Part shown: positions 33,961-63,356 of the stretch, piece by piece
Layout of the letters: each line of letters opens with the position of its first letter
How positions within the stretch are numbered: the first letter of the stretch is position 1
IMG/VR virus record: IMGVR_UViG_3300002219_000133
Length of the DNA: 64,000 nucleotides
Reading direction: 5' to 3' (one strand)
Origin: an uncultured virus (IMG/VR IMGVR_UViG_3300002219_000133)
Taxonomy: Duplodnaviria > Heunggongvirae > Uroviricota > Caudoviricetes
Made by a program: the position numbers and the translations under genes
Notes under the pieces: generated by a model
Seen by the model: the letters and a program-made list of their open reading frames with translations, nothing else
The model's database searches: none
What the model was told of the DNA's origin: nothing

Positions 33961-34022
33961 TATATAAAATATCCGGTAGTGAAATATCTACCGGATATTG
34001 TTTAAGATAAGGAGATTTGAAA

Positions 34023-37108: not shown

Positions 37109-37372
37109 ATGAAGAAATTTTCAGAATATGTTGTTGAAAATACAATAGCAGAAAAAGATTTATCGGGTGGTCGATTCAGTATTGAAGATACTGAAGATTC
37201 AATATCGATAACTTATACTAAGGGTAACGATTCAAATATGTTTCAAATGTGGACAAATGGTGAATCAATATCGGTAGCAGTTAAAGCTAATAATAAAGAA
37301 GTTGTTTTGAATGATATGCCAAAGCAAAAGTTTTTGTTAAAGATGCGAGAATTTTTATCTAAGATGAAATAA
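37109..37372 (+). CDS. Putative internal head protein
   Basis: MKKFSEYVVE; similar to 23825..24022. Confidence 0.5.
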   Translation: MKKFSEYVVENTIAEKDLSGGRFSIEDTEDSISITYTKGNDSNMFQMWTNGESISVAVKANNKEVVLNDMPKQKFLLKMREFLSKMK

Positions 37373-37374
37373 TA

Positions 37375-37431
37375 GTTTACTTTAAATCTCCTTTATGTTA
37401 TAATTTTAAAATAACATAAAGGAGATTTTTT
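37375..37431 (+). promoter_or_regulatory. Early-type promoter embedded in an RBS-occluding terminator hairpin
   Basis: GTTTACT-17 bp-TATAAT; 18-bp arms AAATCTCCTTTATGTTAT / ATAACATAAAGGAGATTT, then TTT ATG at 37432. Confidence 0.8.
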
Positions 37432-38069
37432 ATGAAAAATGATTTTGATTATTGCGCATTGCCAGAAGCATACAAGTATTGGATTCGCGAATATCACTCT
37501 TGGTCTAAATCCAAATGTCCAATTTCATACAAACATGCAATGTTGGAAATGTATTATCAGCGTTTATACGGCAATGATTTATTGAAATACATAGGAGATT
37601 GAATATGAATAAAATGCCAATAATTGATTTGACTAAATGCAACTTGACTTTAGAAGAAATGGCTATTGCTAAAATTGCTATTAAAGGAAACAAAGAAGTT
37701 GGACCACTCCGAGCTAGTTCAATAAAAGAACGAGTTAAAACTATCTATATTGAACCAATATATCCCGACAATAGAGAAAATAGATTAAATTTTAAAAGTC
37801 TTAACTGCTATGCTAATGAAGAAGAGCGAATTAATGCTTTGGGCCGTTATGTCTGGAGAGAATTAGCTTTTATCATGAGTCCAATTTCAGCTCATCATTG
37901 TATGCCAGTATGTAATGATTTTAATTTAGAATATTCTTATGGAGACATAAGAAGATCAGAACAACAGAAGTGGCTCAATAGTATCGTCGATAAAATATAT
38001 AAAACAATACCAATAGAACAGCTTCATGGATTGAATCGATGGAAAAATGTTTTATGTTATTAAATTTTT

Positions 38070-38099
38070 GTTTACATATTCATATAACTTGTGTATAAT
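38070..38099 (+). promoter_or_regulatory. Early-type promoter of the PARP gene
   Basis: GTTTACA-17 bp-TATAAT with upstream TG; AGGAG RBS near 38120. Confidence 0.78.
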
Positions 38100-38130
38100 T
38101 AAATTATAGATAAATTACAGGAGATTGAAT

Positions 38131-39297: not shown

Positions 39298-39728
39298 AAC
39301 AAATTAAAACGGAAAAAATTTCAATTAAACAATTTTGTACAGAAAAACCAGAGTTTATTGATATAGATAAAATCATATCTATATTAAGCGAAATTAGACA
39401 GAATAATCTGAATCAAAAAATATTATGTCGCTTCGATTCAAACATTGATGAAGTGTCTATATTAATTGCATATTTAGAACAATTAACTGAAAAAGAACAA
39501 GCCGAAGTAGATAAACAAAATTTAATCAAAAAATATAAAAATCAACTTCTTGATTGCAGAGAAACAGCTCATTATATTAATAAAATAAAAGATGAGCTGC
39601 CGCAATATAAAAAACGATATGATAATCAAATTGAAGAGTTACAAACTATATTAGACAAACTCGATGAGCTAAATATTGATTATACAAATATAAAAATATA
39701 ATGTTTTGCAATTGAATAGGAATAAATT

Positions 39729-41561
39729 ATGAAAAAAGCAGATAAGATACGTTATATTGAATCAGATATTGAATACGTTCTAACAAGACCAAGTTTGTAT
39801 ATAGGTTCAATACAGCCGAATCAATTAGACACATATTTGTTAGAAGATAATAAATTTGTTAAGAAAAGCATCGAATATATTCCAGCATTTTTAAAACTAT
39901 TCGATGAATTGATAACTAATAGCACCGATGAAGCAATTAAAACCAACTTCGTTTATGCTAATAAAATAGAGGTGAATATTGATGTTCATGGCAGAATTGG
40001 CATTACTGACAATGGTCGGGGATTATCTTCAGATATTGAAGAAAACACTAAGTTACCTCAAGCTGTAATTGCTTTCACAAAATTAAAAGCGGGTTCAAAC
40101 TTTGATGGAGATAGAATTGGAGCTGGACAAAACGGTGTTGGAGCATCATTGGTTAATATCTTCAGCAAAGATTTTATTGTGGACACGTCTGATGGTGAAA
40201 AGAAGACCCTTCTTCATTGTGAAAATAACCTCTCCATAATAAACCATTCCCAACGAAAGAATTCACAACAATACACATCTATTTCATATTTAGCGGATTT
40301 TGAAAAGCTGAATATGACACATCTTGATGATGTTCATAAATCATTAATCGAAAAACGTATTATCAATATGTCACTCTGTTTTCCAGAAATAACTTTTACT
40401 TACAATGGAAAGAAACTTCCAAAGTTATCATTAAGAGATTATGTTAAAATGTTCGATTCTGATCCAATTATTTTTCAAGATACATCAGAATTCGTCGACA
40501 TAGTAATAGTTCCATTTCAGCAATCATCAGAAGTAATATCATTTGTTAATGGTGTTGATACAACAAAACATGGTCAGCATTTAACATTGTTTAATACTCT
40601 TTTAAATAAAGCTCTGAAAGAAAATAAAAAGACTGCTGATATATCATTAACGCAGTTTTTGACAAATTGCAAAGTTTTTATTCTACTAAAGAAAATTAAA
40701 AATGCTTCATTCTCAGCTCAAATAAAAGATGAACTAACAAATCCTTATAATGAAATAAAATCATATTTTAATAATGATTTTGACAAGCTTCTTTCAAACA
40801 TGCTCAAGAATAAAGAATTTTATGAAGCGGTTAAAAACTATGCAGATGCTATTAAAAATTTGAATGATAGAAAGTCATTAGAAAAAGATGAAAAAAAATT
40901 AAAGAAACTTAAAGTTGCAAAGTTCATTCCTTCAATAAGTTCGAAACTTGAATATTGTAATTTTTATATTTGTGAAGGTGATTCGGCTATTGGGCAGCTC
41001 ATCAATGTTAGAAATAATTTTACCGCCGGCTATCCATTAAGAGGAAAAGTAATTAACCCAAGAACATCATCAGCGAAAAAATTATTAGATAATGAAAATA
41101 TTTGTGATCTTGTAGCTCTGCTTGGTTTAAAATTATCTTCACCATCAATTGAAAATTTTAAGTATAGAGCCATTTATATTTTAACCGATGCTGATACTGA
41201 TGGCGATTGTATTGCCGCTCAACTTTTGAATATATTTTATACGTATTGGCCAGATCTTATAAATAAAGGAAAAGTATTTCGAGTTATATCTCCATTGATA
41301 ATTGCAAAGCATAATCAAACGAAACAAGTTGACAATTTTTATTCTTTAACCGATTTTTATACAAAACAAACAGAATATAGTATATTGGAATACAACAAAG
41401 GGCTAGGCTCTTTATCTCAAGAAGAATATAAAAAATTGATTGATAATCCAAAGTTGGTAAAGTTTTCACACACGGATTGCACCGAGCAAAAGTTAGAAAT
41501 GTTATTTGGAAAAAATTCAGCTGATGAACGAAAGGATTGGTTATCAAATGATGAAGAATAA
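39729..41561 (+). CDS. gp39: DNA topoisomerase II large subunit (fused gp39+gp60, GyrB-like)
   Basis: RPSLYIGS, ELITNSTD, DNGRG, GQNGVGA, CEGDSA, PLRGK, TDADTDG, KGLGS. Confidence 0.94.
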   Translation: MKKADKIRYIESDIEYVLTRPSLYIGSIQPNQLDTYLLEDNKFVKKSIEYIPAFLKLFDELITNSTDEAIKTNFVYANKIEVNIDVHGRIGITDNGRGLSSDIEENTKLPQAVIAFTKLKAGSNFDGDRIGAGQNGVGASLVNIFSKDFIVDTSDGEKKTLLHCENNLSIINHSQRKNSQQYTSISYLADFEKLNMTHLDDVHKSLIEKRIINMSLCFPEITFTYNGKKLPKLSLRDYVKMFDSDPIIFQDTSEFVDIVIVPFQQSSEVISFVNGVDTTKHGQHLTLFNTLLNKALKENKKTADISLTQFLTNCKVFILLKKIKNASFSAQIKDELTNPYNEIKSYFNNDFDKLLSNMLKNKEFYEAVKNYADAIKNLNDRKSLEKDEKKLKKLKVAKFIPSISSKLEYCNFYICEGDSAIGQLINVRNNFTAGYPLRGKVINPRTSSAKKLLDNENICDLVALLGLKLSSPSIENFKYRAIYILTDADTDGDCIAAQLLNIFYTYWPDLINKGKVFRVISPLIIAKHNQTKQVDNFYSLTDFYTKQTEYSILEYNKGLGSLSQEEYKKLIDNPKLVKFSHTDCTEQKLEMLFGKNSADERKDWLSNDEE

Positions 41562-41931
41562 AAGAGGTTATGCAGCGTTATTTATTGTTCCGTCAGTTGT
41601 ATGTATTTTTGCTTTTGCAGCACTTATTTATGAAAGAATTGTAGAAATCGAAACATTGAAAGCTAAATGTATAAAATATGGATATGCGCAAATGGTATCT
41701 ATTGATAATAAAATTGTATTTAAATTTATGAAAGAATTAGAAGGAGAAAAGAAGTAAAGTGGCTGAGAATCATAATATGATTGAATGCTTTTGCGATGAA
41801 TGCTATGAAAATTTTTGGTCTTATATTGGAAAAGATATCTGTCCAGTATGTGAGAAATTGTTATCTGATAAAAGATATGAAGAAACGAATAAATTTGAAA
41901 AGATTAAAAAAACTACAAGGAGCATTGAACA

Positions 41932-43905
41932 ATGAATTGGTTTACTGATATTGATAATAGATTAGCCATAATGCGTCAATATTGTATTGATGCTTCTAAT
42001 GCTGATTGCACGCCAGTAAACAAAGCAAACTCAATCGCTTCATACGAAGCTCAATTTGATGAATTAGAATCGAAGATAGCAGCATATAAAGCAAATACAA
42101 TGTTAAAAGAATCCCAGATGGTCGACATCATAATTTCAGATTTTACAAATGTAATTATATCTGATGTTACTTATGATCCACCTATTTTTAAGCCCTCTTC
42201 GCCATATCCTGTTGGGTATTCGGATTATTGGGATATGTATAAAATGAATGGTCTTGTTGATGCTATTCTAGGGTATGTTGATTCATATTTTTATGAAGGA
42301 TGTATATTAGGAATTCTTGGAACAACAATGAAACTGCAAGCCGCAATTATGACTGCAAATATGGCCGAATCTGCAGATTCAATGCTTAGAACTCAGATGA
42401 TCGATTTTGGAAGATCATTTTCTTTGTTAAACACTTTAATCTATTTGACAGAAAATTTTAATCTAACAGGTTCATTTAAAATGAAGACAGAAGTTAGTGA
42501 AAACATATATGTGAATAAGCATGCTAGAGAGATTATAGATTCATTTAACTTAGATGTTTACATTCCTAGTTACATCATTTAAGAGATAAAACATGAGAAA
42601 TAAAGATTATGAAATATTCGCAAATAACAATTTTTATGCTGTAATTGAATCAAAAACTAATTACTTAATTAATAAATATGGTTTTATAAAACATCCAAAT
42701 AATGAGAAGATGCTGGTAAAAAATGATTTAGTAATTATGATCGATATGTTATATAATTATAGTAGAGAAAAGCTAGATGTTTTAGAATTTTTGGCTCATA
42801 ACAATTTTGTGAATGATCCATTTTTTATTAAAGGCTTTATCAATGAATTTGTTCAAATGAGTTATGATGATGTTCATAATTATGAATATTGCGAATTGAT
42901 TGAAATGTATAGATATGCTCGTGAACAGTTTTATGCAGACAAAAAATTAACTGAGGTGACTATATGAAAATTACTGAATACCGAAAATTTGTTACTAATA
43001 AACTTAGAGCCAATGATATTGGACCAATTAGGAATTATCTCGTTAGATATTCTGAAATAAATGATGTTAGAGCTAAATTAGTATATGATGAACAAAATTC
43101 TAACTGGAAGTTAATTCCATCTAAAATTAATCATAATAATAAAACATTTGATTTGATGGCTATGCTGACTAAACATGAAGATATTGGTCCATTACTAACA
43201 TTCTTGATCAAAACACATTCCTATGATGTTATATTTCAAATTCCTGAAATGAGCCGATTTCCAAACATTTATGCGTTTCTCGAAGAAAATGAAACAGCTA
43301 TAAAACTTGTTGCTGAATATAATGAGACAAATAAAATAGTTGCTCACACGTGTTTTGATATTAGTCAATTCATTATTGAATTAACAGATATTGAAGATGA
43401 AAATCATCTATTACAGGTAATGGAAAAATTGGATTCTATTGGTTCTGGATTTGATGGCGTAGAATTGGTTGATTATACAAATAATAAAATTGTATTCATA
43501 CCATCTCACTCATATATTTTGATGGATACAATTCACTCTAGTCGTGATATATTTGGGCCACAGTATTTCGCATTTGAACTTATAAAAAGAAGTGAAGCAA
43601 CGATCTATAATGAAATTATAAATGACGTCATTATGAAAGATGCCACCGAATATGTATTGAATACCGTTTTAAAAGAAGTGTTTGTTATATTTCAAAATGG
43701 CATGAATGTTTCAAATACACAGATTATGAATATTGCATTGGATAAAATAGCTAAAATGCCAGACGAAATAAAACAACTTTTTAATGATTGTCTTGGCCAA
43801 CTATCAGAAACAAGACTCTCTTCTAGCATTATTATTTGGCGTCAACTTCTTGAAAAAGATATTGATTATTCAAGCTTATTTAATGCTTATTCTGCTATAT
43901 CTTAA
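41932..43905 (+). other. Three hypothetical genes (41932-42582, 42593-42967, 42964-43905)
   Basis: Long coupled ORFs with no motif I can assign. Confidence 0.55.
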
Positions 43906-43919
43906 TTATTAAAATTTCT

Positions 43920-43956
43920 AAATACGTGGTATTATAAATAATACCACGTATTTTTT
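43920..43956 (+). promoter_or_regulatory. Terminator-like hairpin with T4 late-promoter consensus TATAAATA across the loop
   Basis: AAATACGTGGTATT-ATAAAT-AATACCACGTATTT TTT; TATAAATA at 43933-43940. Confidence 0.65.
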
Positions 43957-43975
43957 ATATCTGAAAGGAACCGCA

Positions 43976-46588
43976 ATGTTCTATACATTTGTTGGAAAAA
44001 AAGGAAATGAAATTCATCATATTGGATATGATAAAGGGAAAAAGTTTCATTATAAAGAAAGTTTCAAACCATCAGTCTATTATGAGATAAGTAAAACTAG
44101 TGACATCTTCGCATTGGATAGAACCCCGTTAAGACAGAAAACATTCGAAAATTTAACTGAATATTATAAATTTACAAATCAGAATAAAGACTTAATTCAA
44201 TTATACGGGCACATTGATCCAACGCATCAATTCATAGCCGCAAATTATAAATCTCCTATAGAATTTAAACAGAGCGACATAAGAATTTGGTCACTAGACA
44301 TTGAAGTCAATTCAAAAGAAGGCTTTCCATATCCATTCGAAGCAAAATGGCCAATTACGTCTATTAGTATTTATGATTCAAAACGAAACGAATACTTAGT
44401 ATTTTGTTTAAAAGATTATGAGTATGATACGGAGCGTTTACCACTGAATACTAATAAAGTTTCGGTTAAAGTTTGTCAAACGGAAAAAGAATTGATAATC
44501 AACTTTATTAAACTTATTCAACATCTTAGACCCGATATATGGATCGCTCATAATGGCGATGGATTTGACTTTCCATATATTGTCAACAGAACTGAAAACA
44601 TTGGTCTGAATAAAAACGATTTATCACCAATTGGCAAAGCAAACTCAAAATATACTGAAATTGAAGATAAGTTTACATCTGGAAAAGATGAATATCGTAC
44701 ATCAATTGATGGAATATCTCTTTTAGATAATTTAAAATTGTATAAAAAATACGTATCAGATCCTCGTGAATCATATTCACTATCTAATCTTGCTGTTGAA
44801 GATTTAAATATGGACAAATTAAATTATGAAGAATATGATAATCTTACTCAATTGTATGAATTAGATCATACGAAATTTGTGGATTATAACATAGTTGATG
44901 TGCATTTGATGGTTATGCTTAATAAGAAAAGACGTTACATTGATATTCATATTCGAAATACTTATAAAGCCAAGGCAGCCAATTTTGAAGAATGTATGTC
45001 GCCAATTAAACTATGGGACATTTACATCTATCATTCATTATCTGAAAAGAATGTACAAATTCCACCATTGAAATCAGATGTTACAAAATTTGCATATCCT
45101 GGTGCATGGGTAGTTGAACCGGTTATAGACTTATTGCAATGGGTAGTAACATTTGACTTGAACAGTCTATATCCACATATTCACATGCAATGGAACATAT
45201 CACCAGAAATGCTTGTAGAAGATTTGACTGTAACCGATTGGCTTCAGTCTTTGAGTGAATCTGAAATTGATGAATATATTAAAAAATCTAAATCTCAAAA
45301 ACAAATCAAATTTTTAAAAGAATTAAAAGAACTTAATAATCTTGGATATTCGATTATACCTATAGATCGAGAACAATTGGATGATAGAATATTGAATAAA
45401 CTAATTCCAACTCATCCAGATTATATTATGACGGCAAATGGATTTTATTTTAAAAAAGATGATGTTGGCTGCATTCCAAAACTATTAAAAGAAAATTATG
45501 CTGAACGCAAAGCAATCAAGAAAGAAATGGAATTATTAAAAGCTAAACAGGATAAAGCTTTTGATGATCAGCTTTCTGGAATGTATGTTGCTGAACAAGG
45601 CATCAAGATTATGATGAACTCAGAATATGGTGCATTAGCGAATGAGTTTTTTAGATATTGCCGATATGAGCTTCCATCTTCAATAACGATGAATGGACAA
45701 TTAGTTTTAAAAACACTTATAAATGCTTTGACAGCTAAGTATGGTGAAGAAATAATCTTGTGCGCTGGTGATACCGATTCAATTCTAATTTCGGTTGCGC
45801 CATTAGTTAAAAAACATTGTAATGGATTTACTGCAGATCAAATTATTGATTGGATCCAAACATTTGCTAATACAGAATTTCAGCAGCTAATAAATGATAC
45901 ATACCAGGATTTGTCAGAATATGTTGGCGCTCCAGAAAATTATATGAAAATGAGTTGCGAAAAAATTATATCTAATGCTTTCTGGACAGCAAAGAAACAT
46001 TATGCATATCGATTAGTGGTTGAAGATGGTATTAAATTAAATACTCCGAAATTTGGATATAAAGGACTTGAGTGTGTTAAGTCTAGCATTCCCAGAGCAA
46101 TTCGAGCAATGCAAAAAGAAACGATTCAAACTATATTAACTAATAAAGAAGATTTATATAATGTTGTTAATAGATGTAAAGAAAAAATAATGGCTCTTTC
46201 TCCAGAAGATATAGCATTGCCGAAAACATGTAATGGATTATACAAATATGCAGATGGCAAAGGTGGATGGATAAAAGGCGCTCAAGCTCATGTTAAGGCT
46301 GCGATGAATTACAATAAATATGTATTAAATAATAAACTAATCAATCAGTATTCATTGATAAAAGATGGTGAAAAAATTAGATTTGTTTGGATGAAGCAAC
46401 CTAATACACTTAATGCTGAAACATTTGGATTTATCAATAGATTGCCAAAAGATAATATGATTCTTGACTTTATTGATTACGGAACAATGTATGAAAAGAC
46501 TTATGGTAAAATTATTGATGATATGTGTGAAAGATTAAATATTCAAAACTTATTATCAACAACGAATTCATTAGATGATTTTTTCTAA
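43976..46588 (+). CDS. gp43: Family B DNA polymerase
   Basis: Exonuclease DIEV, HNGDGFDFPY, YNIVDV; polymerase DLNSLYP, KIMMNSEYG, GDTDS, KKHY; C-terminal clamp-binding SLDDFF. Confidence 0.96.
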   Translation: MFYTFVGKKGNEIHHIGYDKGKKFHYKESFKPSVYYEISKTSDIFALDRTPLRQKTFENLTEYYKFTNQNKDLIQLYGHIDPTHQFIAANYKSPIEFKQSDIRIWSLDIEVNSKEGFPYPFEAKWPITSISIYDSKRNEYLVFCLKDYEYDTERLPLNTNKVSVKVCQTEKELIINFIKLIQHLRPDIWIAHNGDGFDFPYIVNRTENIGLNKNDLSPIGKANSKYTEIEDKFTSGKDEYRTSIDGISLLDNLKLYKKYVSDPRESYSLSNLAVEDLNMDKLNYEEYDNLTQLYELDHTKFVDYNIVDVHLMVMLNKKRRYIDIHIRNTYKAKAANFEECMSPIKLWDIYIYHSLSEKNVQIPPLKSDVTKFAYPGAWVVEPVIDLLQWVVTFDLNSLYPHIHMQWNISPEMLVEDLTVTDWLQSLSESEIDEYIKKSKSQKQIKFLKELKELNNLGYSIIPIDREQLDDRILNKLIPTHPDYIMTANGFYFKKDDVGCIPKLLKENYAERKAIKKEMELLKAKQDKAFDDQLSGMYVAEQGIKIMMNSEYGALANEFFRYCRYELPSSITMNGQLVLKTLINALTAKYGEEIILCAGDTDSILISVAPLVKKHCNGFTADQIIDWIQTFANTEFQQLINDTYQDLSEYVGAPENYMKMSCEKIISNAFWTAKKHYAYRLVVEDGIKLNTPKFGYKGLECVKSSIPRAIRAMQKETIQTILTNKEDLYNVVNRCKEKIMALSPEDIALPKTCNGLYKYADGKGGWIKGAQAHVKAAMNYNKYVLNNKLINQYSLIKDGEKIRFVWMKQPNTLNAETFGFINRLPKDNMILDFIDYGTMYEKTYGKIIDDMCERLNIQNLLSTTNSLDDFF

Positions 46589-46600
46589 AGGGAGAAAACG

Positions 46601-47224
46601 ATGATTACAAAAGAAATGCTTGATTATTATATGGAGCGAACAAATAAACACATTAGTCTAGTGAAAGATGTGTTTTATAAGAGCTATTTAAAATTGGATC
46701 TACATTATACCGAATTGCTAAACTTATCTGATGAAATAGAATGTCACGATAAAACCAAATTCAGCAAAGAACTTATGTTTCATTATATATTGATCACTTG
46801 GAATTATAAATGTATAAGAGAAGGTATTGATTTTATTATTCCAAACAACATAGCAATGGAAATGACAAAAGCAACTGAACTACATTGTAAATTAGAAAAA
46901 CATCATCCTGAATATTGGTCATCTCAGACAAATGTCGTAAATCCAGATAATAGAGATGTTCCATTAAAATGTATTAATGTTACTAATATGAATAAGCTTT
47001 CTATGATTCAGATGGTTATTGATTGGTGCGCTGTAAGTATTGAACGAAACAATACACCAATGAGTTGGTTCAAATCAAATTTAAACGTTAGATGGCATTT
47101 TAATGAAGATCAAGTTCAATTTATTAATAAAATGATAGATATTTTTTGGAGGCCTTATGCAAAAATGGTACGAAATAATATTCGAAGGAAAAGGATACGT
47201 TGGTTTAAAAGTCTGCAAAGATGA
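46601..47224 (+). CDS. HD-like metal-dependent phosphohydrolase (DUF5662-like)
   Basis: T.KHI..V, HDKTKFS, H...EKHHPEYW, MVIDWCA. Confidence 0.65.
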   Translation: MITKEMLDYYMERTNKHISLVKDVFYKSYLKLDLHYTELLNLSDEIECHDKTKFSKELMFHYILITWNYKCIREGIDFIIPNNIAMEMTKATELHCKLEKHHPEYWSSQTNVVNPDNRDVPLKCINVTNMNKLSMIQMVIDWCAVSIERNNTPMSWFKSNLNVRWHFNEDQVQFINKMIDIFWRPYAKMVRNNIRRKRIRWFKSLQR

Positions 47225-47630
47225 TGTTATTCGAATCACTAATATTCTTAGTGAAATTGGAATTGATGTTCCGTTAGAAGGTCTTCATGTAACATTAATA
47301 TACGATAAGACGAATCCAGATATTAATTACAAGCCGGATATTAAAAAATATGTTGCATATCCAATTGATATTCATGTGATGGGAAAACCTTCATCAGACT
47401 TCTATTCGATAGCTCTAATACTTGTTTCTGATGAATTAATAAGCAAATTTAATTCTCTTAAAGAAACTGGATTTAAACATTCATATTCAGAATTTGTTCC
47501 TCATGTTTCGTTGATATATAAACCTACAGAAGATCAGATAAATACTATTTTGACAAATAAGGACTATATTATACATAGTCTCAAATCAATTTCGTTTGAT
47601 TCTGAATGGAATGAAGAATTGCACTCTTAA
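47157..47630 (+). CDS. 2H phosphoesterase, T4 gp57B/Acb1 (anti-CBASS)-like
   Basis: GYVGL, LHVTLIY and HSYSEFVPHVSLIY (two HxT/S motifs); about 157 aa. Confidence 0.75.
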   Translation: MQKWYEIIFEGKGYVGLKVCKDDVIRITNILSEIGIDVPLEGLHVTLIYDKTNPDINYKPDIKKYVAYPIDIHVMGKPSSDFYSIALILVSDELISKFNSLKETGFKHSYSEFVPHVSLIYKPTEDQINTILTNKDYIIHSLKSISFDSEWNEELHS

Positions 47631-47697
47631 ATATTAAAAAAAATATTGTTGTAGTATAATTGTTATATCAAATAAATACATTCGAAAGGGAAACTAT

Positions 47698-48042
47698 ATG
47701 GGTAGAAATGCCGGATATGGGCAGAGACCGACAACTAGAGTTAAATCAAAAATCAATTGGATTGAATATGATATTAATTGGTTTGCTATGGCTAAATCAA
47801 ATTGCCCGAAATGCTATGGCCGTGGATATGAAGGTTTTGAAGTTCAAACGGAAGATGAAATTGCGAATAACGATGAAAAAACTAAATTGCTTTGTGATTG
47901 CGTGGCTAAAAAGTGGACAACTATGAGCGATGAAGAAAGATTGACATATGCAACAAGAAAAGAAAATGCTGATGAAATCGTGATAAAAGCAAAGGAAGAA
48001 CTTCAAAGAGTAATTGAAGAAGAAAAAGAAAAAGTAGCATAA
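47698..48042 (+). CDS. Zinc-finger protein (DnaJ-type CxxCxGxG)
   Basis: CPKCYGRG ... LCDC. Confidence 0.55.
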   Translation: MGRNAGYGQRPTTRVKSKINWIEYDINWFAMAKSNCPKCYGRGYEGFEVQTEDEIANNDEKTKLLCDCVAKKWTTMSDEERLTYATRKENADEIVIKAKEELQRVIEEEKEKVA

Positions 48043-48053
48043 TTTAATTTATT

Positions 48054-48127
48054 AAAAAAATAGATAACATTTTTATAGTGTTATCTATTTTTTTTTTGTT
48101 TACATTTTTAAAATTATATGGTAAGAT
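48054..48127 (+). promoter_or_regulatory. Terminator followed by an early-type promoter
   Basis: ATAGATAACA(T)...(G)TGTTATCTAT stem plus T run, then GTTTACA-17 bp-TAAGAT. Confidence 0.72.
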
Positions 48128-48343
48128 AAATTCATAAGGAGATTTAAAAATGCTTACAAAATCAAATGGAAAGACAAAAGATACACGAGGGTGCGAGTTT
48201 CATTATCAGCGTCTCCATACAAGACAATTCAATGCATCTAAATGTATTACGGAAGAATTTTCATTATATGTATGCATTGAATTTCCATCAGTAACGTCTA
48301 ATTCTTTGAAAGAACTTAAAATAAAAATGGGGGAGATTTGAAA

Positions 48344-49192
48344 ATGAATATTTTCGATTTTAGCGAAAAACTGAACAAAGAAATTGGTGGAGTCTTATAC
48401 TTTGTTGGAGGCTGCGTTAGAGATTCAGCAATGAATATTATTAACTTTAGAAGCAATAAACCGGCAGTCATATCGAAAGATCTTGATTGCGAGCTTTTTA
48501 ATTGTACAATTATAGATTTTGAACTATTTTTGTGCAGTAATAATATTCCATTTGATATTGAGCCAGAATCCAAGTTCCCAGTCTACAGAGTTAATATAGC
48601 TGATGAAATAATAGAAATTGGATTTCCTAGAAAAGATAATAAAACAGGAAATAAACATACTGACTTTTCAGTTGAAGTTGATCCATTTATGAGCATAAAA
48701 GAAGCCGCAAGACGAAGAGATTTTACTTGCAATGCTATTCTTCAACGGATAGATAAACGAGAATGTCTCCATGATGATCCATTTAATGGTATTGAAGATA
48801 TTCGTTATAACACGCTAAGACCCGTCGATGTTAATACCTTTAAGGAAGATCCATTGAGATTGTTTCGAGCATTCCAGTTGATAGCTAGATTTGGTTTCAA
48901 CTTTGAAGAAGTATTAAAAATAATTGATCAAGATTTTTTAGAATCGACAAAGCATTTATCCAAAGATTCGATATTTAAAGAATTTGAAAAGGCAATTTTA
49001 CACGGTAAATCTAATCATATATCCAAAGCATTAGACTTCTTAAAAGAATCTGGTCTATTAAAGCTTCATTTTCCAGAATTAGATTTGTTAAGCTCATGTG
49101 AACAATCACCAAAGCATCATAAAGAAGGAAATGTCTGGAACCATACAAAAGCTGTTGTTGCTGAAGTTATGAAAATATTTGAAGAGGAATAA
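48344..49192 (+). CDS. cca: CCA-adding tRNA nucleotidyltransferase, N-terminal part (NTase + body + start of HD domain)
   Basis: VGGCVRD, KDLDCE, RRRDFTCNA, DPFNG, EDPLRLFRAFQLIARF; ends just after HHKEGNVWNHT. Confidence 0.9.
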   Translation: MNIFDFSEKLNKEIGGVLYFVGGCVRDSAMNIINFRSNKPAVISKDLDCELFNCTIIDFELFLCSNNIPFDIEPESKFPVYRVNIADEIIEIGFPRKDNKTGNKHTDFSVEVDPFMSIKEAARRRDFTCNAILQRIDKRECLHDDPFNGIEDIRYNTLRPVDVNTFKEDPLRLFRAFQLIARFGFNFEEVLKIIDQDFLESTKHLSKDSIFKEFEKAILHGKSNHISKALDFLKESGLLKLHFPELDLLSSCEQSPKHHKEGNVWNHTKAVVAEVMKIFEEE

Positions 49193-49194
49193 AA

Positions 49195-49542
49195 ATGAAA
49201 GTATTATATGAATACCATTTACAAACAAATCTAAATTGGACATGCTATAAAAGAGAAGTTTTTGAAAATACACCAGATAATATTAGAATAATTATTGGAA
49301 AATATTCTAATCAAATATCAGTATCTGAACTAAACAAAATTAGATCTGATTATCATTATTACTCATTACATAGATTATCTGAAGCTGAAGAAAAAGCAAT
49401 TCATCTTATATATCTAAGGTTAAAATCTAAGGCTATTGAATGTAGTCTTAAAGAATTGCATGATGAAATGAATGCAAGGAGAAGTATTATAGAAACTCAT
49501 GAAGATAATGTGTTGATGGAAATAAATAAATTAAAGGAATAG
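49195..49542 (+). CDS. Hypothetical protein
   Basis: ORF coupled to the cca N-terminal gene. Confidence 0.55.
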   Translation: MKVLYEYHLQTNLNWTCYKREVFENTPDNIRIIIGKYSNQISVSELNKIRSDYHYYSLHRLSEAEEKAIHLIYLRLKSKAIECSLKELHDEMNARRSIIETHEDNVLMEINKLKE

Positions 49543-49544
49543 AT

Positions 49545-50228
49545 ATGATACTATTTGTTGGAGATACGCATTGTGATTTCCCATTTTTATCAAAAGCATT
49601 GTCAGTTGCCGCAAACAATAATATAAATAATGTTATTGTTTGCGGCGATTTTGGATATTGGCCAGATGATAATGAGGGTTTTGTTTTTCTTTCATATTTA
49701 AATACATTTATGAAAGAAAAATTTGTTTGTATGAATTTATATTTTGTTGATGGAAATCATGAAGATTTTAAACACATTAAAAAACTTCCTCAAAATAAAG
49801 TTAGCGAAATTCCAGAGGTAGAACGATGTTTCTACATTCCTAGAGGTGTTGTTCATCAAATTGATGGAAAGAATATAATGGGATTCGGCGGAGCATATAG
49901 TATTGATCGTTTATATAGACAAATTGGCGTATCATGGTTTGAAGAAGAGACTATTAAAGATGATGAAATAGAAAGAATCAATAATAACATTCCAATAGAT
50001 ATATTAGTTTGCCATGATGCTCCATTGAATATTCTTGGAACTAATTATAAAAATGATATGCTGTCGCTTTTAAATCGTTTTCAAATTCAAAAAATATGTA
50101 AAATTGTTCAACCAAAAACATTAATTCATGGGCACTATCATATCTTTAAAGAATACACATATAATGATATTGAATGTATTGGATTGGCGCATAATCATTC
50201 TTTGCAACAGAATTGTTTAATAAAATAG
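49545..50228 (+). CDS. Calcineurin-like metallophosphoesterase
   Basis: GDTH, CGDFG, DGNHE, GGAYSID, CHDAP, HGHYH. Confidence 0.88.
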   Translation: MILFVGDTHCDFPFLSKALSVAANNNINNVIVCGDFGYWPDDNEGFVFLSYLNTFMKEKFVCMNLYFVDGNHEDFKHIKKLPQNKVSEIPEVERCFYIPRGVVHQIDGKNIMGFGGAYSIDRLYRQIGVSWFEEETIKDDEIERINNNIPIDILVCHDAPLNILGTNYKNDMLSLLNRFQIQKICKIVQPKTLIHGHYHIFKEYTYNDIECIGLAHNHSLQQNCLIK

Positions 50229-50240
50229 GTCTTAACAAAC

Positions 50241-50277
50241 AAAAATCCCAACTTATTAATTTAAGTTGGGATTTTTT
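50241..50277. terminator. Bidirectional terminator at the +/- convergence point
   Basis: AAAAATCCCAACTTA-TTAATT-TAAGTTGGGATTTTTT, with A and T runs on either side. Confidence 0.85.
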
Positions 50278-50279
50278 AT

Positions 50280-51734
50280 TTAGAAGCTATAAATTAGTTC
50301 TTTATTCTTATCACAATATTCTTCTTTTAATGGAACCATGTATTGTCTATTTACGGCACAATATCTCAAGATTATTTTATAATGCTGATCAACAATGATT
50401 AATAAACAATTGTATGGATCATTTCTTAAAATATACTTTGGCTTGAGATTTAGCATATATGTTCCACCACGCAAATATTCAAGTAATGGCTTTAAAATGC
50501 TTTGCATAATTTCTCACTTTATAAACAATTGTATAATGCGCAAAATATAACTTAGTGTTGTATCCAGAGCAAGACCAGCTAATACACACAACACTAATAA
50601 AATTGTAGGATCATCCACTATTTTATTGCACAATGTTATCAAAGGACTCGGCTCTTTATTCATATTGTTATTCCTTGTAATTTCAATTTTTTAAATATAT
50701 AATCTCGAGCAACTTTACAGTCTTCAATTGATTCAAATAATATCTCTATGGATTCTTTGTCATTCAAGTATTCAATATGAATTTCAGTATCATAAACAAA
50801 AATCGCTTTTATATTGTTAATACTAAAAACAATCAATGTATTAAATTTGTCGGTAAGCATTATCATTTGTATTATCCTTTAAAAATCAATGCATTTTTGG
50901 AGAATGCTATCAATTTTATCTTCAATTGATAGACTCAATTTACATTCAAATCGAATTGTTTTTAAACATTGTATTGCTTCAGTTAGAGCTGACATATCCA
51001 CTGGTTCTTCTGATACTCTATCAGCTCGTTGCATTACTGTATTATACACATAAATATTTCCATATTCATCAACTGAACTGATGGGTCTTTTACATTCTTT
51101 ACAATAGCTGAACCGATTCATTTAATACTACTCCTCATTATTTCAATTATTTGTTCAACTTCATTGCAAAAACAATTTTTATTGCAATCTAACATATTTT
51201 CAAAATTGTGATTGTCAAATTTAATTATCAATTCAGATAATAAGTTTTTATATTCCATCATCTGAGAATAATTACATTCTTGCTCAGTGTGTTTTGCATA
51301 ACATATATATTCTTGAATCTTCTGATTAGCCTTATTTAATTCTTCAGTAAGAAACGATATTCTTTTTAATAGAGCGCATTTTGTCGTATTCATATTAATT
51401 CATCCTCATCAAAAAGAAAATCATCTAAATCTAATTCTAATCCGCGAACATTTTCAAGAGTAATTCCTTCAGATCCATCAACTGGATGAAATCCTTCTAC
51501 ATATTTCATTTCTTCAATTACGCCATATTTATTCAAACCTTCAGTAATTGCTAAACTTAAACATTTTGTTGCATGCCGTTTAATAGCATGTTCTAATGGA
51601 TCTTCTTCCATGTTTCTTTTAATAAACCAATCTAAATGTTCTATAGCTTTTTCTTTTGTAAATTTCTCCGTATCAATTCTAAGCTCTACTTCCATATCAA
51701 ACGTATCTTCGCACCATTTATACATTTTAATCAT
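50280..51734 (-). other. Cluster of small hypothetical genes
   Basis: Coupled ORFs 50280-50507, 50660-50866, 50879-51121, 51118-51393, 51390-51734. Confidence 0.5.
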
Positions 51735-51774
51735 AAATTCTCCTTTTCATAAATTATAAGTCAAAAATAAAATT

Positions 51775-52761
51775 TTATATAAGTCGTATTAAAGATTCAG
51801 CTTCAAATCCTTTATAAATGTTATTATCAATAGTTGTTTTAATATTCTCAACAGAGTATCCATTTTCGACCATTTTATTGATATCTTTACCCCACGTATA
51901 AACTGACTTTGGCCACAATGCAATTTTAAAACCTTTTTTAGCAATATTCAGCATTCGTTGTTTTATTTCTTTGTTACGTCTTTCATTATCGTACACGAAT
52001 ACGAAGTTGTCTTTATTTGAAATTTGAAGCAATTGATCAACGTCCACGCTAGATGAATTCATAGATATTGCATTTGGCAAAAATAATGAATCAATATAAC
52101 CTTCTGTGACATATATCATTTCATTTTTATTGACGCGTTCTAATCCAGAAACATTCAATTCATTCTCGTTGAATAAAATTGTAATATATCGAAGCTTAGC
52201 AAATTTATCTATGCTTCTTCCTTGTGCTCCAACAATTTTCTTGTGAATGTTATAAATAGGAAGCACAATACGAGCATCTTGATGCGGCGTACTGATGAAC
52301 TTACCGGGCATCTTATTGTTTATCCATAGCTGATAATTGAATGCAAAATAGATGTGTTTCCAGTGATTTAAAGGTATCTTTCTATTTTCGATATATTTTC
52401 TAGCAAAATGTTCTTTGTCTAATGAAAAAATTGACGGCAAATCATCTATATATTCAAATTCAATTTTTGGCAATTCATTTGCATGATCTTCAATGTGTTT
52501 ATCGTGTTTATCGAATATCTCATTCTTAATATATTCGGAATATAAATGAGGATAATGATCTTTTAGAAAAGATTTGAATGGTTTTGCATATCCACAATTA
52601 TAGCAGTTATACCAAAATTCACCTTTATATGTATAGATCCAACCACGTTTTTTTCTAAGATTAGTTTGAGAATCTTTACAAATCGGACAACGAAAATTAA
52701 ACTTACCAGATTTCTTGGTAAGTTTGTTTAAGCCAATTTGATATATTATTGATTCATTCAT
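51775..52761 (-). CDS. gp61: DNA primase
   Basis: FRCPICKDS...KKRGW...CYNCG zinc finger, QGR, LRYITI, TOPRIM VTEGYIDSLF, DNE, KDIN. Confidence 0.93.
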   Translation of the reverse strand: MNESIIYQIGLNKLTKKSGKFNFRCPICKDSQTNLRKKRGWIYTYKGEFWYNCYNCGYAKPFKSFLKDHYPHLYSEYIKNEIFDKHDKHIEDHANELPKIEFEYIDDLPSIFSLDKEHFARKYIENRKIPLNHWKHIYFAFNYQLWINNKMPGKFISTPHQDARIVLPIYNIHKKIVGAQGRSIDKFAKLRYITILFNENELNVSGLERVNKNEMIYVTEGYIDSLFLPNAISMNSSSVDVDQLLQISNKDNFVFVYDNERRNKEIKQRMLNIAKKGFKIALWPKSVYTWGKDINKMVENGYSVENIKTTIDNNIYKGFEAESLIRLI

Positions 52762-53716
52762 ATACTAACATATAATCATCTTCAGTTATTTCAATTGTTG
52801 TAGCTTCATGACGTTCTAACATTCTTTCGAGTTTTTCCAATCGTTTAATATCTTTAAATAATTGTATAAGATCATTCGGAATCAATATTTTAATATTTGA
52901 TAATGATGATATTCCATGATTCTTAATCAAAGAACTTATATTTATAATTTCTTGTTCGTATAAGTCATTATTATCAAACCAATTTTCAACATCTTTTGTT
53001 GTGACATCTAAGATTTTAGTTTTGAATAAACGATAATATAATGTTTTTGAAATTTTTTCATTATATGTGTTTACTAATTGCGCTAATTGTTGAAACATTC
53101 GTTCCTTTTTAAAATCATATACCGATTGTTTTAGATCATGTTTCTGTTTAATATATATGCTAAATAAACTAGTTTTAACCACGATATTCATATTCATCTC
53201 CAATTGTTTATAATAATACCATCATACATCTTTGCATAGTGCTTAGCAGTCTTATAATCCATAGAATGAGATTTCATTCCATCCTTATACTTAACATAAA
53301 ACTTTCCAGATTGAATTTGTTCTGGAAGAGACAATTTTTCGAATCTATATAGATAACTTTTAATAACATTTAGCAATTTAGATATCATTGTCTTTCGTGT
53401 TCTACAATTTTGATATTATCACAATCATTCCACTCTTTTTTCATATCTAACACCTCACCAACTCTAACTATTCTCGCTTTACAAGCAACATCTTCCCATT
53501 CCATATCATTCTTTGCCCAATCTTCAATTAAACCAGCATCATTATTAAATTCTTTTGTTATTTCTTCAATAACGTTGCCAAATTCTATAATCATAGATTT
53601 GGACGCGTCGTCTTCAAACCAATGATTATCAAAAGCATATTTTGCTTTATTGAATATAATTTCATATAATGGAACTTCATATACATCGCCATTAGAACAA
53701 GTAAACTGATAGAATT

Positions 53717-54298
53717 TCATATATTCACCTTTTTAAATCTTCGCATTGTAAAATCCATTGCTTCTTCGTGTGTCTTTAATTGAAAAGAACATTGTTTGGC
53801 TCTGATCTCATCCATAATTTTGCCAATGATTTTACCAGATTTAAACCCAATAGAAATCAAGTCTTTGCCACTCAACAACTTTGGAAGAGGTTCATTAAGA
53901 ACGCCAAGATCATGAATTCTTTTATATAAATTGATGTGACTAATCAAAGTGTCTTCGCGAGATAATAAACCAATTCGTCCAATTTCATCGCGCAATTTAA
54001 GACTTAGAATTTCATTCCAACATATATCATGTTTAATAAATTCATCAGCTCTTTTTACGATAGATTTATTAGAAATAGATTCGTTGAGCATGTGCTGCTG
54101 TATCATCATTAATATTGGCTTAATTAATTTCTTGGGAATAAGATTAGTTAAGCAATCTTCGGCTATTATTGAGCCAATATTTTCATGATCTATAGCTTGA
54201 ATATCCTGTTTCTGTTCATTAAATTTAGTTGTTTGGGGCTTGCCAACATCATGATACAGCGCTGCAAAAAATAATTTAATTTTTTGATCTTTATTCAT
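53717..54298 (-). CDS. cca: CCA-adding enzyme, C-terminal part (HD domain remainder + tail)
   Basis: AALYHDVGKP, DHENIG, QHM, D..GR, LLSGKDLISIGFKSGKIIGKIM...EEA (CCA tail). Confidence 0.85.
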   Translation of the reverse strand: MNKDQKIKLFFAALYHDVGKPQTTKFNEQKQDIQAIDHENIGSIIAEDCLTNLIPKKLIKPILMMIQQHMLNESISNKSIVKRADEFIKHDICWNEILSLKLRDEIGRIGLLSREDTLISHINLYKRIHDLGVLNEPLPKLLSGKDLISIGFKSGKIIGKIMDEIRAKQCSFQLKTHEEAMDFTMRRFKKVNI

Positions 54299-54929
54299 TT
54301 CCTAATTTCCTTATTTGATCAATTGATTTGATTATTATTCCGTATTCTTCAATCTCTTCATCACTATAATTTTCTGCTTTTGCAATTTTTTTATAGTTTT
54401 TAAGCCACTGGTTGATAGTATATGACTTACAACCGATGTTGAGATAATCCCCATCTAATGTGATGCAATGTTGTGATAATTGAAATGTTTTGACCTGTTT
54501 CGTGTGCTTTCCGTTCACTATATTAGCAGATCCAGAAACTATAGCAAATACATAAACTTCAGCGTTTCCATAAACTTTAGCAGATCCAGAAACGATAGCA
54601 TTTCCAGAAACGATAGCATTTCCAGAAACGATAGCATTTCCATAAACTTCAGCATCTCCATAAACTTTAGCATTACCAGAAACTTCAGCATTACCAAAAA
54701 CTCTAGCATTTCCAGAAACGATAGCATTTCCAGAAACGATAGCATTTCCAGAAACGATAGCATTTCCAAAAACTTTAGCTTCATCGTAAACAAAACATTC
54801 GCCATCATGACTCAGATTGTTTTCAGTTTCAATCCAACCACCGATCAGACCGTCTGATAGACGTCTGATTCGATGCATTGTGTGTCCATAAAATTCTTTC
54901 GTTTCACCAGTAAATTCGTATTTTTTCAT
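54291..54929 (-). CDS. Left-handed beta-helix (hexapeptide repeat) protein, copy 2
   Basis: MKKYEFTGE...GGWIETENNLSHDGECFVYDEA, GNAIVS repeats; near-identical C-terminus to 34023..34709. Confidence 0.82.
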   Translation of the reverse strand: MKKYEFTGETKEFYGHTMHRIRRLSDGLIGGWIETENNLSHDGECFVYDEAKVFGNAIVSGNAIVSGNAIVSGNARVFGNAEVSGNAKVYGDAEVYGNAIVSGNAIVSGNAIVSGSAKVYGNAEVYVFAIVSGSANIVNGKHTKQVKTFQLSQHCITLDGDYLNIGCKSYTINQWLKNYKKIAKAENYSDEEIEEYGIIIKSIDQIRKLGNE

Positions 54930-55189
54930 TTTCAAATCTCCTTTATAATCCAAGCATTTCTGTATATTCTTCATCTGAAAATAAATGCTGATATTGATAC
55001 GAATTCAATTCCATATTTTTCAAATCAGCATTTACTTTTTGTAACTCATTAACAGCATACAACAAATTAATTGTAACAACAACTGATAATAACAATAAAA
55101 TCCATTCTTTCATTTTCAAATCTCCTTATTTATTTTCATTATAATATATATATCGGCATTTGTATACAAAAAGTTTAATGTTTTAAAAT

Positions 55190-55229
55190 AAAAGTGGTCT
55201 ACAGACATAAACATCTGTAGACCACTTTT
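55190..55229 (-). terminator. Terminator after rnh
   Basis: AAAGTGGTCTACAGA ... TCTGTAGACCACTTT, 15-bp arms. Confidence 0.7.
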
Positions 55230-55239
55230 ATAAATAATA

Positions 55240-56133
55240 TTAAATAAAATTATTGGCTTTAGTGACCAACCCGTTTAAACCAATTTGTCTAAAATAATTT
55301 CCAATTACTATAGCATTTTTTCGTTTAAAGTCTTTACTAACTCTTTCATATTCTTCACCTATTCCATTCCATATACGAGCCGGAATAAATTGTTCTGTTA
55401 ACATGATAAGCTTTTGATTTCTTTCATAGTTCTTTCTAAAAATAGCATCCTCTATCATCATTTCTTCAATACCATTCGAAAGAAATTCTGTTATCTTTTT
55501 ATCACCGCAAGCTTTTTGGCGCTTATTTTCATTAACAAATGTGTCATCATCAGAAAGCACATTTGGAATGCCATCAGAACTATCACCTTTCAATATCATC
55601 TTTTGAATAAACAAATCACGATTTTCGCAACTAATGATCTTTTGTTCGAGATGTGAATATAGACAAACCTTATTACTTGTTAATTGCTGAAAGTCTTTAT
55701 CCCCGCTAACAATATACACTTTGCTAATCATATTATCTTTTTCAAATTTGTGCGCCAAATAGCCAATAACATCATCAGCCTCAGCATCTTTTACTTGAAT
55801 AACTTTATAATTCAAATTTACAATATCTTTTTTCAAAGCGTCAATACATTTAAAAATCAAATTGTATTTAAGCGGATCATCAGCTCGTTTCATATCGCGC
55901 TGAGCTTTATAAAATTTAAATTCTTGTTTACGCCAAGATTTATCATCAATGGCTAGAATAACTTCATTAACTTTTAAACTAGAAACAACATCGCCCAATT
56001 TATTTAAGACACTATGTTTGAAGAATGTAATCTTATCTTCTTCCGTTTCAAGCTGATCATCTTTTTCAACATTTCCATAGAATTGCGCAAAACAAATAGG
56101 TGAAAAGTCAATAATGGCAACATGCAAATTCAT
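55240..56133 (-). CDS. rnh: T4 RNase H-like 5'-3' flap exonuclease
   Basis: IIDFS, SWRK...YKAQR, AEADD, SGDKDFQQL, KGDSSDGIPN. Confidence 0.92.
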   Translation of the reverse strand: MNLHVAIIDFSPICFAQFYGNVEKDDQLETEEDKITFFKHSVLNKLGDVVSSLKVNEVILAIDDKSWRKQEFKFYKAQRDMKRADDPLKYNLIFKCIDALKKDIVNLNYKVIQVKDAEADDVIGYLAHKFEKDNMISKVYIVSGDKDFQQLTSNKVCLYSHLEQKIISCENRDLFIQKMILKGDSSDGIPNVLSDDDTFVNENKRQKACGDKKITEFLSNGIEEMMIEDAIFRKNYERNQKLIMLTEQFIPARIWNGIGEEYERVSKDFKRKNAIVIGNYFRQIGLNGLVTKANNFI

Positions 56134-62891: not shown

Positions 62892-63192
62892 TTTTAATTC
62901 CTTTTTAAATTGGTTTTTAATGCTTGTTTATTATAAGTTTTTTAATTGTTTTTTAATATTAAATGTTGGCCTCCTTCAATTTACTTTTCCATAGAATATG
63001 TGTAGTTTCTTTTGGCATTTTATTTAATGTTTTTAAAGTAATTATAATGCTATCATCAATAAATTTTCCATATACTGGATGACCGTATTCATCATCTTTT
63101 AATAGACCACTACGAAAGCTTTTCAAAAAAGTATTCAAATCGTACAATTCTTCATGATTCATACATACCTCTTTTTAAAAATACATTAGCAG

Positions 63193-63276
63193 TGCCGGAT
63201 ATCGGACTCGAACCGATAAGAGATTTCTCTCGAGTGATTTTAAGTCACTTGCGTATACCAATTTCGCCAATCCGGC
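63193..63276 (-). tRNA. trnL: tRNA-Leu(UAA), no encoded CCA
   Basis: GCCGGAT acceptor stem, AGTGA-CT-TAA-AA-TCACT anticodon arm, long variable arm, GGTTCGAGTCC T loop; followed by CTG. Confidence 0.93.
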
Positions 63277-63283
63277 ATTTCAT

Positions 63284-63356
63284 CAGGGCCATCTGGATTC
63301 GAACCAGAATAATCAGAGTCAAAGTCTGATACACTAACCAATTATGTTATAGCCCT
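63284..63356 (-). tRNA. trnQ: tRNA-Gln(UUG), no encoded CCA
   Basis: AGGGCTA/TGGCCCT acceptor stem, TCAGA-CT-TTG-AC-TCTGA anticodon arm, GGTTCGAATCC; followed by ATG. Confidence 0.92.

Follow-up and report, generated by a model that had tools for sequence, protein, structure and literature searches.

In this article, I discuss a cca gene, for a class II CCA-adding enzyme with an HD domain, that occurs as two separate genes in an uncultured virus (IMG/VR record IMGVR_UViG_3300002219_000133), of which a stretch of 64,000 nucleotides (nt) was analysed and is called the window throughout. The reading that I favour, with a probability of about 0.8, is a fixed gene fission, in which two convergent transcription units with a common terminator would each yield one polypeptide of the enzyme: the first (N-half) carries the full nucleotidyltransferase core (GGCVRD, DLD, RRD, EDPLR) together with the first His helix of the HD domain, the second (C-half) carries the other HD ligands and a tRNA-binding tail, and the two chains most likely come together in a restored helical HD/body domain. 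Their association would restore tRNA binding for CCA addition and would also create a metal site to which both chains contribute and which would serve 3'-end healing, with the phage's own CCA-less tRNAs and damaged host tRNAs as the likely substrates. The fission would have preceded the divergence of the window phage from a relative represented by a second IMG/VR contig (G002), with a rearrangement placing the 3' part on the opposite strand and more rearrangements following. An earlier reading of the letters alone (the sequence-only reading) had already seen a split CCA enzyme in two convergent open reading frames (ORFs), and had left a choice between a natural two-subunit enzyme from an old inversion and a switchable inversion; the former is supported by the same cut and the kept catalytic residues in relatives, and the latter is not supported.

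Both ORFs lie where that reading placed them (Table 1), on opposite strands and 4.5 kb apart, and their products sum to 475 amino acids (aa) with nothing missing and no internal stops in either, as had been claimed. The normal HD spacing of the joined halves also holds up, with 45 residues from HH.EG to HD.GK as compared with 41-45 in nine fused relatives. The N-half ORF as listed starts with TTG at 48338 and has its stop codon at 49190-49192; ATG 48344 is the likely start, preceded as it is by GGGGAGATTTGAAA, which nearly matches the common start region of the phage, and the protein ends in HHKEGNVWNHTKAVVAEVMKIFEEE before the stop, 5 residues past the last conserved helix. The C-half begins with MNKDQKIKLFFAALYHDVGKP, its ATG overlapping the final codons of the upstream hexapeptide gene. 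The cut falls in a variable loop that links helix 1 of the HD domain to the HD dipeptide, leaving the first His motif of the HD domain on the N-half and the HD dipeptide on the C-half.

The class II motifs A to D are defined as GGxVRD, DxD, RRD and EDxxR, and they read GGCVRD, DLDCE, RRRDFTCNA and EDPLRLFRAF in P0003, in columns that are invariant in 9/9 N-halves. In Pfam, the N-half matches the PolyA_pol head (PF01743) with 45.5 bits (cut-off 23) and falls just below the cut-off for PolyA_pol_RNAbd (20.5 against 22); it further matches the PHROGs tRNA nucleotidyltransferase family phrog_2244 (E 6.7e-50) and the CCA-adding enzymes 6ibp, 1miv and 3h37 in the PDB (E 1e-15 to 1e-21). Judged from sequence, by the head-domain score and the catalytic motifs, the N-half is a class II tRNA nucleotidyltransferase of the PolyA_pol superfamily. 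The C-half matches HD (PF01966) with 30.6 bits (cut-off 22) over profile positions 23-113 of 116 only, so it lacks the beginning of the HD domain, and it reaches 22.9 bits for tRNA_NucTran2_2, below the cut-off of 27. Since the first His motif sits on the N-half, the complete H...HD...H...D ligand set exists only if both chains are combined.

Evidence that the cut is old comes from relatives. A word-index protein search with the N-half returned 699 relatives at E up to 1e-10, the closest of which (50-61% identity) fall in two length classes: a short class of eight further clusters of 264-271 aa (P0004-7, P0009, P0010, P0012, P0013), and a long class of four clusters of 458-466 aa with an HD domain (P0008, P0011, P0014, P0015). 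All the short-class proteins stop 0-5 residues past HTKxVVxxxM, that is, at the same helix, with tails past the last conserved helix that vary by lineage (IFEEE, MF, NQ, AF, AMM, SFIK). An exhaustive profile search with the C-half through 1.84 billion representatives gave nine proteins at E up to 1e-30, and five of these are stand-alone C-halves, namely the window's own cluster P0001 and P0123, P0124, P0126 and P0127, the last four beginning within 4 residues of the window C-half start; the other four include the full-length P0011 and P0014 and junction-spanning proteins such as P0125 and P0128. The word-index search with the C-half produced 2 matches only, one of which, P0002, spans the junction; P0008, P0011, P0014 and P0015 are likewise continuous across it. 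Each lineage keeps its own stop codon on the N-half or start codon on the C-half, HH.EG.VW.HT (H258, H259, E261, G262, V264, W265, H267, T268) is invariant in 9/9 N-halves, and H16, D17, H38, H69 and D104 are invariant in 5/5 C-halves. A cut shared by related phages in this way argues for an old, fixed two-piece enzyme rather than a DNA switch or an assembly error. Comparison with related phages for an intact cca, which the sequence-only reading had proposed, thus finds fused forms of 458-466 aa in the same clade and the same split in others, and its worry that the halves might derive from unrelated cca lineages is not borne out: P0011 is the nearest fused relative of both, matching the window at two places only, 48350-49174 (60%) and 54283-53696 (47%).

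Farther afield the gene is mostly whole. Among 46 distant IMG/VR loci, the N and C matches lie in one open frame in 42, and the remaining four comprise L116, split in cis, L137, without an N match, and L141 and L143, with shorter frames. Against 50,697 phage records, the N-half matched 394, all at less than 60% identity (PMBT37 has a full-length gene of 422 aa), and a tblastn search of the same records with the C-half gave no match; genome-contig scans returned cellular cca only, at 39% identity or less and mostly from metagenome-assembled genomes of Clostridia. As a separate observation, L116 (IMGVR_UViG_3300037086_000474, 8473-10528) is an unrelated phage whose N part of 252 aa ends inside the motif HPEG|DVW and whose C part of 238 aa resumes with ..GDVWEHT, the 580-nt gap holding a proline-rich ORF of 126 aa and no intron found with Rfam. 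The C-halves P0124 and P0126 share a C-terminal extension of about 65 aa that the window C-half lacks, and that of P0124 has no similarity to the ORF downstream of the window C-half.

The genomic surroundings of the pair were compared through IMG/VR, metagenome and genome-contig scans, which gave context for two split lineages (the window with G001, and G002 with L020) and for one fused lineage (L012). In G002, a contig of 15.8 kb, the N-half (58% identity) ends at the same point and the C-half has 40% identity; the two are convergent, as in the window, but have 12.5 kb and a different set of genes between them. Taken in the orientation that puts the N-half on the + strand, G002 has a zinc-finger protein, a nucleotidyltransferase-like protein, a phosphoesterase, the N-half, three small ORFs, a NAD ligase, and then, with other genes interspersed, an RNA ligase, FEN and a small membrane ORF, facing the homologue of ORF 50280, the primase and the C-half on the other strand. 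The block running from C-half through primase to terminator is kept between window and G002, and the N-half stays with zinc-finger and phosphoesterase genes in both. In G002 the ligase-FEN module follows downstream of the N-half; in the window it is found upstream of the C-half. L020 has a G002-type truncated N-half followed by the same small ORF as in G002, and the fused relative L012 carries cca, ORFs of 147 and 68 aa, RNA ligase and FEN all on one strand; an RNA ligase is found near cca in relatives. At least one further large rearrangement separates the window and G002 genomes; several two-step inversion schemes would derive both orders from one ancestor, and the L012 order favours none of them.

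How often the gene changed state can be asked of the trees. The N-part tree holds 9 split and 10 fused rows (P0017, on a long branch, and P0025, P0026 and P0029 were left out), and in it a branch with 98/98 support joins seven split forms with the fused P0008 and P0011, leaving the split P0012 and P0013 outside; forcing one split clade on it costs 20.8 log-likelihood units (approximately unbiased (AU) test, p 0.027), for a group that was chosen after an earlier tree had been viewed. The C-part tree, with 5 split and 13 fused rows, nests P0008 and P0011 likewise at 87-89% support, and there the AU test does not reject a single split clade (p 0.089). Because fused forms nest among split ones, the data favour, with modest support and without proof, at least two state changes at the loop, which would be either two fissions or a fission and a re-fusion. 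The fused P0002 and P0008 have a Met exactly at the position where the C-half starts, and this could have eased independent translation of the 3' part. A bolder reading, which I consider unlikely, is that fission and fusion recur at this loop, with at least two changes between one piece and two at the same codon position; such changes could have come about through repeated inversions around the convergent terminator with one breakpoint in cca, helped by the in-frame Met, or through re-fusion, and, if it were true, the two-piece state may be selected for separate control of the catalytic and the tRNA-binding/HD parts.

Whether the two chains find each other was approached through structure prediction. 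The complex model of the halves passes a mark that 116 of 157 solved complexes reach, as do 2 of 215 mismatched pairs; these counts are only rough for the present case, because the model was run with alignments of my own. The interaction prediction score from aligned errors (ipSAE) is 0.84 in 3/3 runs, whereas the three controls reach 0.00 at best; shared contacts amount to at least 97%, and the partner predicted local distance difference test (pLDDT) value is at least 85. The predicted interface, N-half residues 207-219 and 243-279 against C-half residues 1-21, 32-35, 45-55 and 99-110, is the rebuilt helical bundle, and it places H267 and T268 of the N-half beside H16 and D17 of the C-half. 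The heterodimer prediction that the sequence-only reading had suggested as a check thus passes, possibly through likeness to solved single-chain enzymes. Taking motif conservation, the incomplete HD domain of the C-half and the complex model together, the two halves most likely work together, and their function would be CCA addition and repair with HD-dependent healing of 3' ends. The HD domain of E. coli Cca reportedly has a phosphohydrolase role, according to Yakunin and co-workers in 2004. The general view of phage CCA enzymes is that they repair or mature the 3' ends of tRNAs (PMC7824862).

The alternative that survives best, unlikely as I judge it to be, is that the halves act independently, with no obligate complex, the N-half sufficing as a minimal enzyme that adds CCA, CC or A, and the C-half serving by itself as a small phosphohydrolase of the HD type or as a protein that binds tRNA. 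It draws on the presence of every nucleotidyltransferase motif in the N-half and on the placement of the two genes in different transcription units, and it has to accommodate a predicted interface that is exactly the HD helix bundle, a C-half that lacks positions 1-22 of the Pfam HD profile, and an HD motif I that is invariant in 9/9 N-halves and useless without the rest of the domain; this motif being kept on every N-half while the rest of the domain is encoded elsewhere argues for an HD site built from two chains.

A second alternative, very unlikely, is a switch, in which the 5.1-kb segment would flip in part of the population and toggle a full-length cca. The sequence-only reading had noted AGGAA at both junctions, at coordinates that are confirmed, and had calculated that an inversion rejoins cca in frame and reciprocally fuses the hexapeptide gene to ORF 49195; inverting 49190-54298 in silico does give a single ORF of 475 aa at the left junction and, at the right one, a fusion of 342 aa between the hexapeptide gene and ORF49195. 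This restored frame, and the intermingling of split and fused forms in both the N-part and C-part trees, are what a switch has in its favour. The homology amounts to 5 bp only, and AGGAA is the phage's Shine-Dalgarno motif (found no more than 20 nt ahead of the start in 11 of the 31 larger ORFs that were sampled out of 89), with both copies placed before start codons, so the match is not above expectation and its reading as a crossover site is unsupported. No longer flanking repeat accompanies it: the 25 longest of 402 inverted-repeat pairs in 47500-55500 never join 49190 and 54300. None of the 89 window ORFs matches an integrase or invertase PHROG (E up to 1e-5), in a genome that extends past the window, and UvsX, UvsY and a RuvC-like resolvase are the only recombination-type proteins among them, in agreement with the earlier remark that no site-specific recombinase is visible. 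The N-half junction in G002 has no AGGAA, the G002 halves lie 12.5 kb apart with other contents between them, and each half in each lineage has its conserved stop or start codon. As the split is older than the 58% and 40% protein divergence and the lineage-specific tails, no nucleotide-level junction can have survived, and the rejoining "exactly in frame" is correct arithmetic that carries little information.

Contigs agree with a single arrangement. Three runs of one study (X1, X2, X3) contain the whole 6.1-kb stretch, and in each run one Logan contig covers 47800-54528 or 47800-54614 with 0 differences, in one orientation only and with no joint at 49190 or 54300; since contigs lose minor variants, this excludes gross misassembly and would not register a rare flipped form. 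A switchable inversion is, on all this, not supported. None of the nine listed runs is an RNA run; X5 is labelled RNA-Seq and is probably DNA, and its pieces bridge no junction. That run, from wastewater and another study, contains short contigs with 90-98% identity to portions of four window genes, namely the N-half, ORF49195, phosphoesterase and primase (window 48550-52867), which suggests, from sequence similarity, a close relative of the window phage in that sample.

It is hardly credible that the halves are decaying remnants of a gene broken by rearrangement: cca is accessory in phages, which would allow such a loss, but both pieces are open, no internal stops were found and the catalytic residues are kept in lineages as distant as 40-64% identity. 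A misassembled or chimeric contig hiding an intact cca has nothing beyond the tidy in-frame rejoining to commend it and is the most improbable reading, as G001 and the Logan contigs of three runs are identical in arrangement, the truncated N-half and the separate C-half recur in another assembly, that of a diverged relative, and eight more N-half clusters and four more C-half clusters exist.

Other ways of dividing or rejoining a gene find no support either. A split-intein pair is contradicted by the Pfam matches of the two halves, which include no intein or Hint family, and by N tails of 0-5 and C heads of at most 4 extra residues; an intron or trans-splicing finds only two chance-level Rfam matches (E up to 1, over 47000-56000), to microRNA and snoRNA families, and each half has a stop or start codon and a Shine-Dalgarno motif of its own; and a split by an endonuclease cassette finds no endonuclease family in ORFs 49195-54974, the genes between and next to the halves being the phosphoesterase, the primase and small ORFs, a past cassette being possible.

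Several points weigh against a fixed fission with two cooperating chains. Genomic context with both halves comes from only two lineages, and in G002 the 5' end of the C-half is cut by the contig end, its start being taken from the near-identical cluster P0123. The supporting runs come from one study that is possibly the window's own source, and their contigs drop rare variants; G001 is 100% identical to window 34729-54728 (20 kb) and is thus the same genome, not an independent one. The complex score may only mirror the likeness to single-chain CCA enzymes that have been solved (3WFO and others), and the 56 promoter matches found in the region do not exceed chance, by which 49.6 would be expected. 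What the analysis shows is the anatomy of the pair, the conserved cut and residues, and one arrangement in the contigs; that the chains associate and are co-expressed, what they catalyse and how the split arose I infer.

The putative expression signals are arranged alike for the two halves: each belongs to a short unit at whose head stand a hairpin with its T-run, a sigma-70-like promoter match and then a small ORF (48063-48152 on the + strand, 55222-55111 on the - strand). The first promoter match is the probable start of a unit running from ORF48150 through the N-half and ORF49195 to the phosphoesterase, and the second that of a unit running from ORF55119 through the hexapeptide gene and the C-half to the primase. 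The bidirectional terminator that the sequence-only reading had placed within the segment is seen as a hairpin, and both window tRNAs do lack CCA as it had stated. A 17-nt translation start region, AAGGAGATTTRAAAATG, has 6 copies in the window (0.24 expected), 4 of which lie in the two cca units; oppositely oriented copies form the longest inverted repeats around the locus (I1 of 38 nt, I2 of 31 nt) and could have been substrates for the inversions that reshuffled the region.

Table 1. Features of the split cca locus, in window coordinates
Feature	Position	Strand	Basis or remark
cca N-half, 282 aa from ATG: class II nucleotidyltransferase head, neck and first HD helix (HHKEGNVWNHT)	48344..49192	+	ORF, Pfam, alignments
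cca C-half, 193 aa: remainder of HD domain and tail	53717..54298	-	HD at residues 16-17, H38, H69, D104
AGGAA, 5 nt before ATG of ORF 49195	49185..49189	+	ribosome-binding motif, not recombination site
AGGAA directly before C-half ATG; second AAGGA 9 nt upstream	54299..54303	-	ribosome-binding region
Hairpin of 15 bp with A-run and T-run: terminator common to the two convergent units	50241..50276		lies between + and - genes
Sigma-70-like promoter match TTTACA-17-TAAGAT, TG before second hexamer	48099..48127	+	behind hairpin and T-run at about 48063-48098
Sigma-70-like promoter match TATACA-17-TATAAT	55138..55166	-	behind hairpin and T-run at about 55222-55185
AAGGAGATTTRAAAATG copies	34009, 48136, 48330, 32863, 54927-54943 (-), 55111-55127 (-)		opposite-orientation copies included
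ORF of 115 aa, 3' of N-half	49195..49542	+	without family match
Calcineurin-like metallophosphoesterase, 227 aa	49545..50228	+	homologue upstream of N-half in G002
gp61-type DNA primase	51775..52761	-	downstream of C-half in same transcription unit; abuts C-half directly in G002
Beta-solenoid (hexapeptide-like repeat) protein, upstream of C-half	54291..54974	-	likely true start ATG 54929, behind AAGGAGATTTGAAA
tRNA-Leu(UAA) and tRNA-Gln(UUG): candidate substrates	63192..63356	-	both without encoded 3' CCA

CCA-adding enzymes are, in textbooks, single-chain, template-independent polymerases, and artificial chimeras and truncated forms have served to study how their catalytic head works with the body and the tail. 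The nearest solved relative of both halves is an Aquifex aeolicus enzyme deposited as "Poly A polymerase" (PDB 3WFO-3WFS), which I take to be a CC-adding enzyme. As compared with single-chain class II enzymes of the E. coli Cca type, the domain order (N-half on 3wfo_A 124-270, C-half on 319-507), the motifs and the HH.EG-to-HD.GK spacing are the same; the difference is that there are two polypeptides here, cut within the HD domain and encoded on opposite strands. Collaborating CC-adding and A-adding enzymes (Aquifex, Deinococcus and others) also divide CCA synthesis between two gene products, but those are full-length paralogues, whereas here one enzyme is physically cut into complementary pieces. 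Full-text literature searches turned up no report of a class II CCA-adding enzyme that is physically split.

Precedents for fission itself are at hand. In T4, the large subunit of topoisomerase II is split into genes 39 and 60, which are fused in relatives; this is likewise a fission fixed in a T4-type phage, of a different enzyme, and the 39/60 halves are not known as convergent partners around a terminator. The cyanobacterial dnaE-n/dnaE-c and the split genes of Nanoarchaeum equitans are enzyme halves encoded far apart, on opposite strands for dnaE, and the dnaE halves are rejoined by protein trans-splicing, for which the window halves, without intein or Hint match, offer no room in tails of 0-5 residues. 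The closest published analogue found is the "gene in pieces" NrdA-a/mobE/NrdA-b of Aeromonas phage Aeh1, a T4-like phage enzyme encoded by two genes; the products come together with no splicing of RNA or protein and restore an active site that had been fragmented, and the halves are adjacent around a homing endonuclease and depend on insertion-derived tails (PMC3045599). The window halves differ from these in having no cassette, only 0-5 extra tail residues, opposite strands and different transcription units. The window pair is a real, conserved two-gene CCA/HD enzyme, and gene fission in T4-type phages is an already known theme.

A natural two-chain version would be a ready-made system for studying the contributions of the body, tail and HD module, and would also exemplify an HD metal site to which two polypeptides contribute; with split and fused forms in one clade, the route and the cost of phage gene fission can be followed. 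There is a warning for annotation as well, since "truncated" phage CCA enzymes of 264-282 aa and orphan HD proteins of about 190 aa may be halves of one enzyme.

The window phage itself is of the T4 type and AT-rich (about 29% G+C), with a polymerase that is only about 31% identical to that of any cultured phage. A PHROG scan of its 89 ORFs recognizes gp43 polymerase, gp45 clamp, gp44/62 clamp loader, RegA, UvsX, UvsY, gp46/47, gp55 and gp32, and furthermore gp61 primase, NrdD, RNase H, NAD ligase and two topoisomerase II pieces, which are separately encoded (39729-41558 and 5750-7039). The + strand carries the genes as far as about 50230; beyond about 50280 they lie on the - strand. To the left of the terminator the order is zinc-finger protein, ORF48150, N-half, ORF49195 and phosphoesterase; to its right, and reading away from it against the direction of transcription, come ORF 50280, further genes, the primase, three ORFs, the C-half, the hexapeptide gene, a small membrane ORF, FEN, two ORFs and the NAD ligase.

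Among the neighbours, a protein of 157 aa (47157-47627, + strand), 0.7 kb upstream of the N-half, matches the Pfam family Acb1, an anti-CBASS 2H phosphoesterase, with 52.6 bits (cut-off 27), and the PHROGs name for the same family is "RNA ligase". Overlapping it by 65 nt, and directly after the DNA polymerase gene, is a DUF5662 protein (46601-47221, + strand, 69.7 bits). Far to the left, a protein of 654 aa (12196-14157, + strand), with a PHROG match to "homing endonuclease"/HNH (E 2e-150) and to Pfam DUF7487, sits between the uvsX and uvsY homologues. The beta-solenoid protein upstream of the C-half has a paralogue at 34017-34706 (+ strand), the two sharing 18-nt tandem repeats (12 copies), the YdcK solenoid repeat and the same PHROGs, and Logan contigs break inside this repeat, where variants are present.

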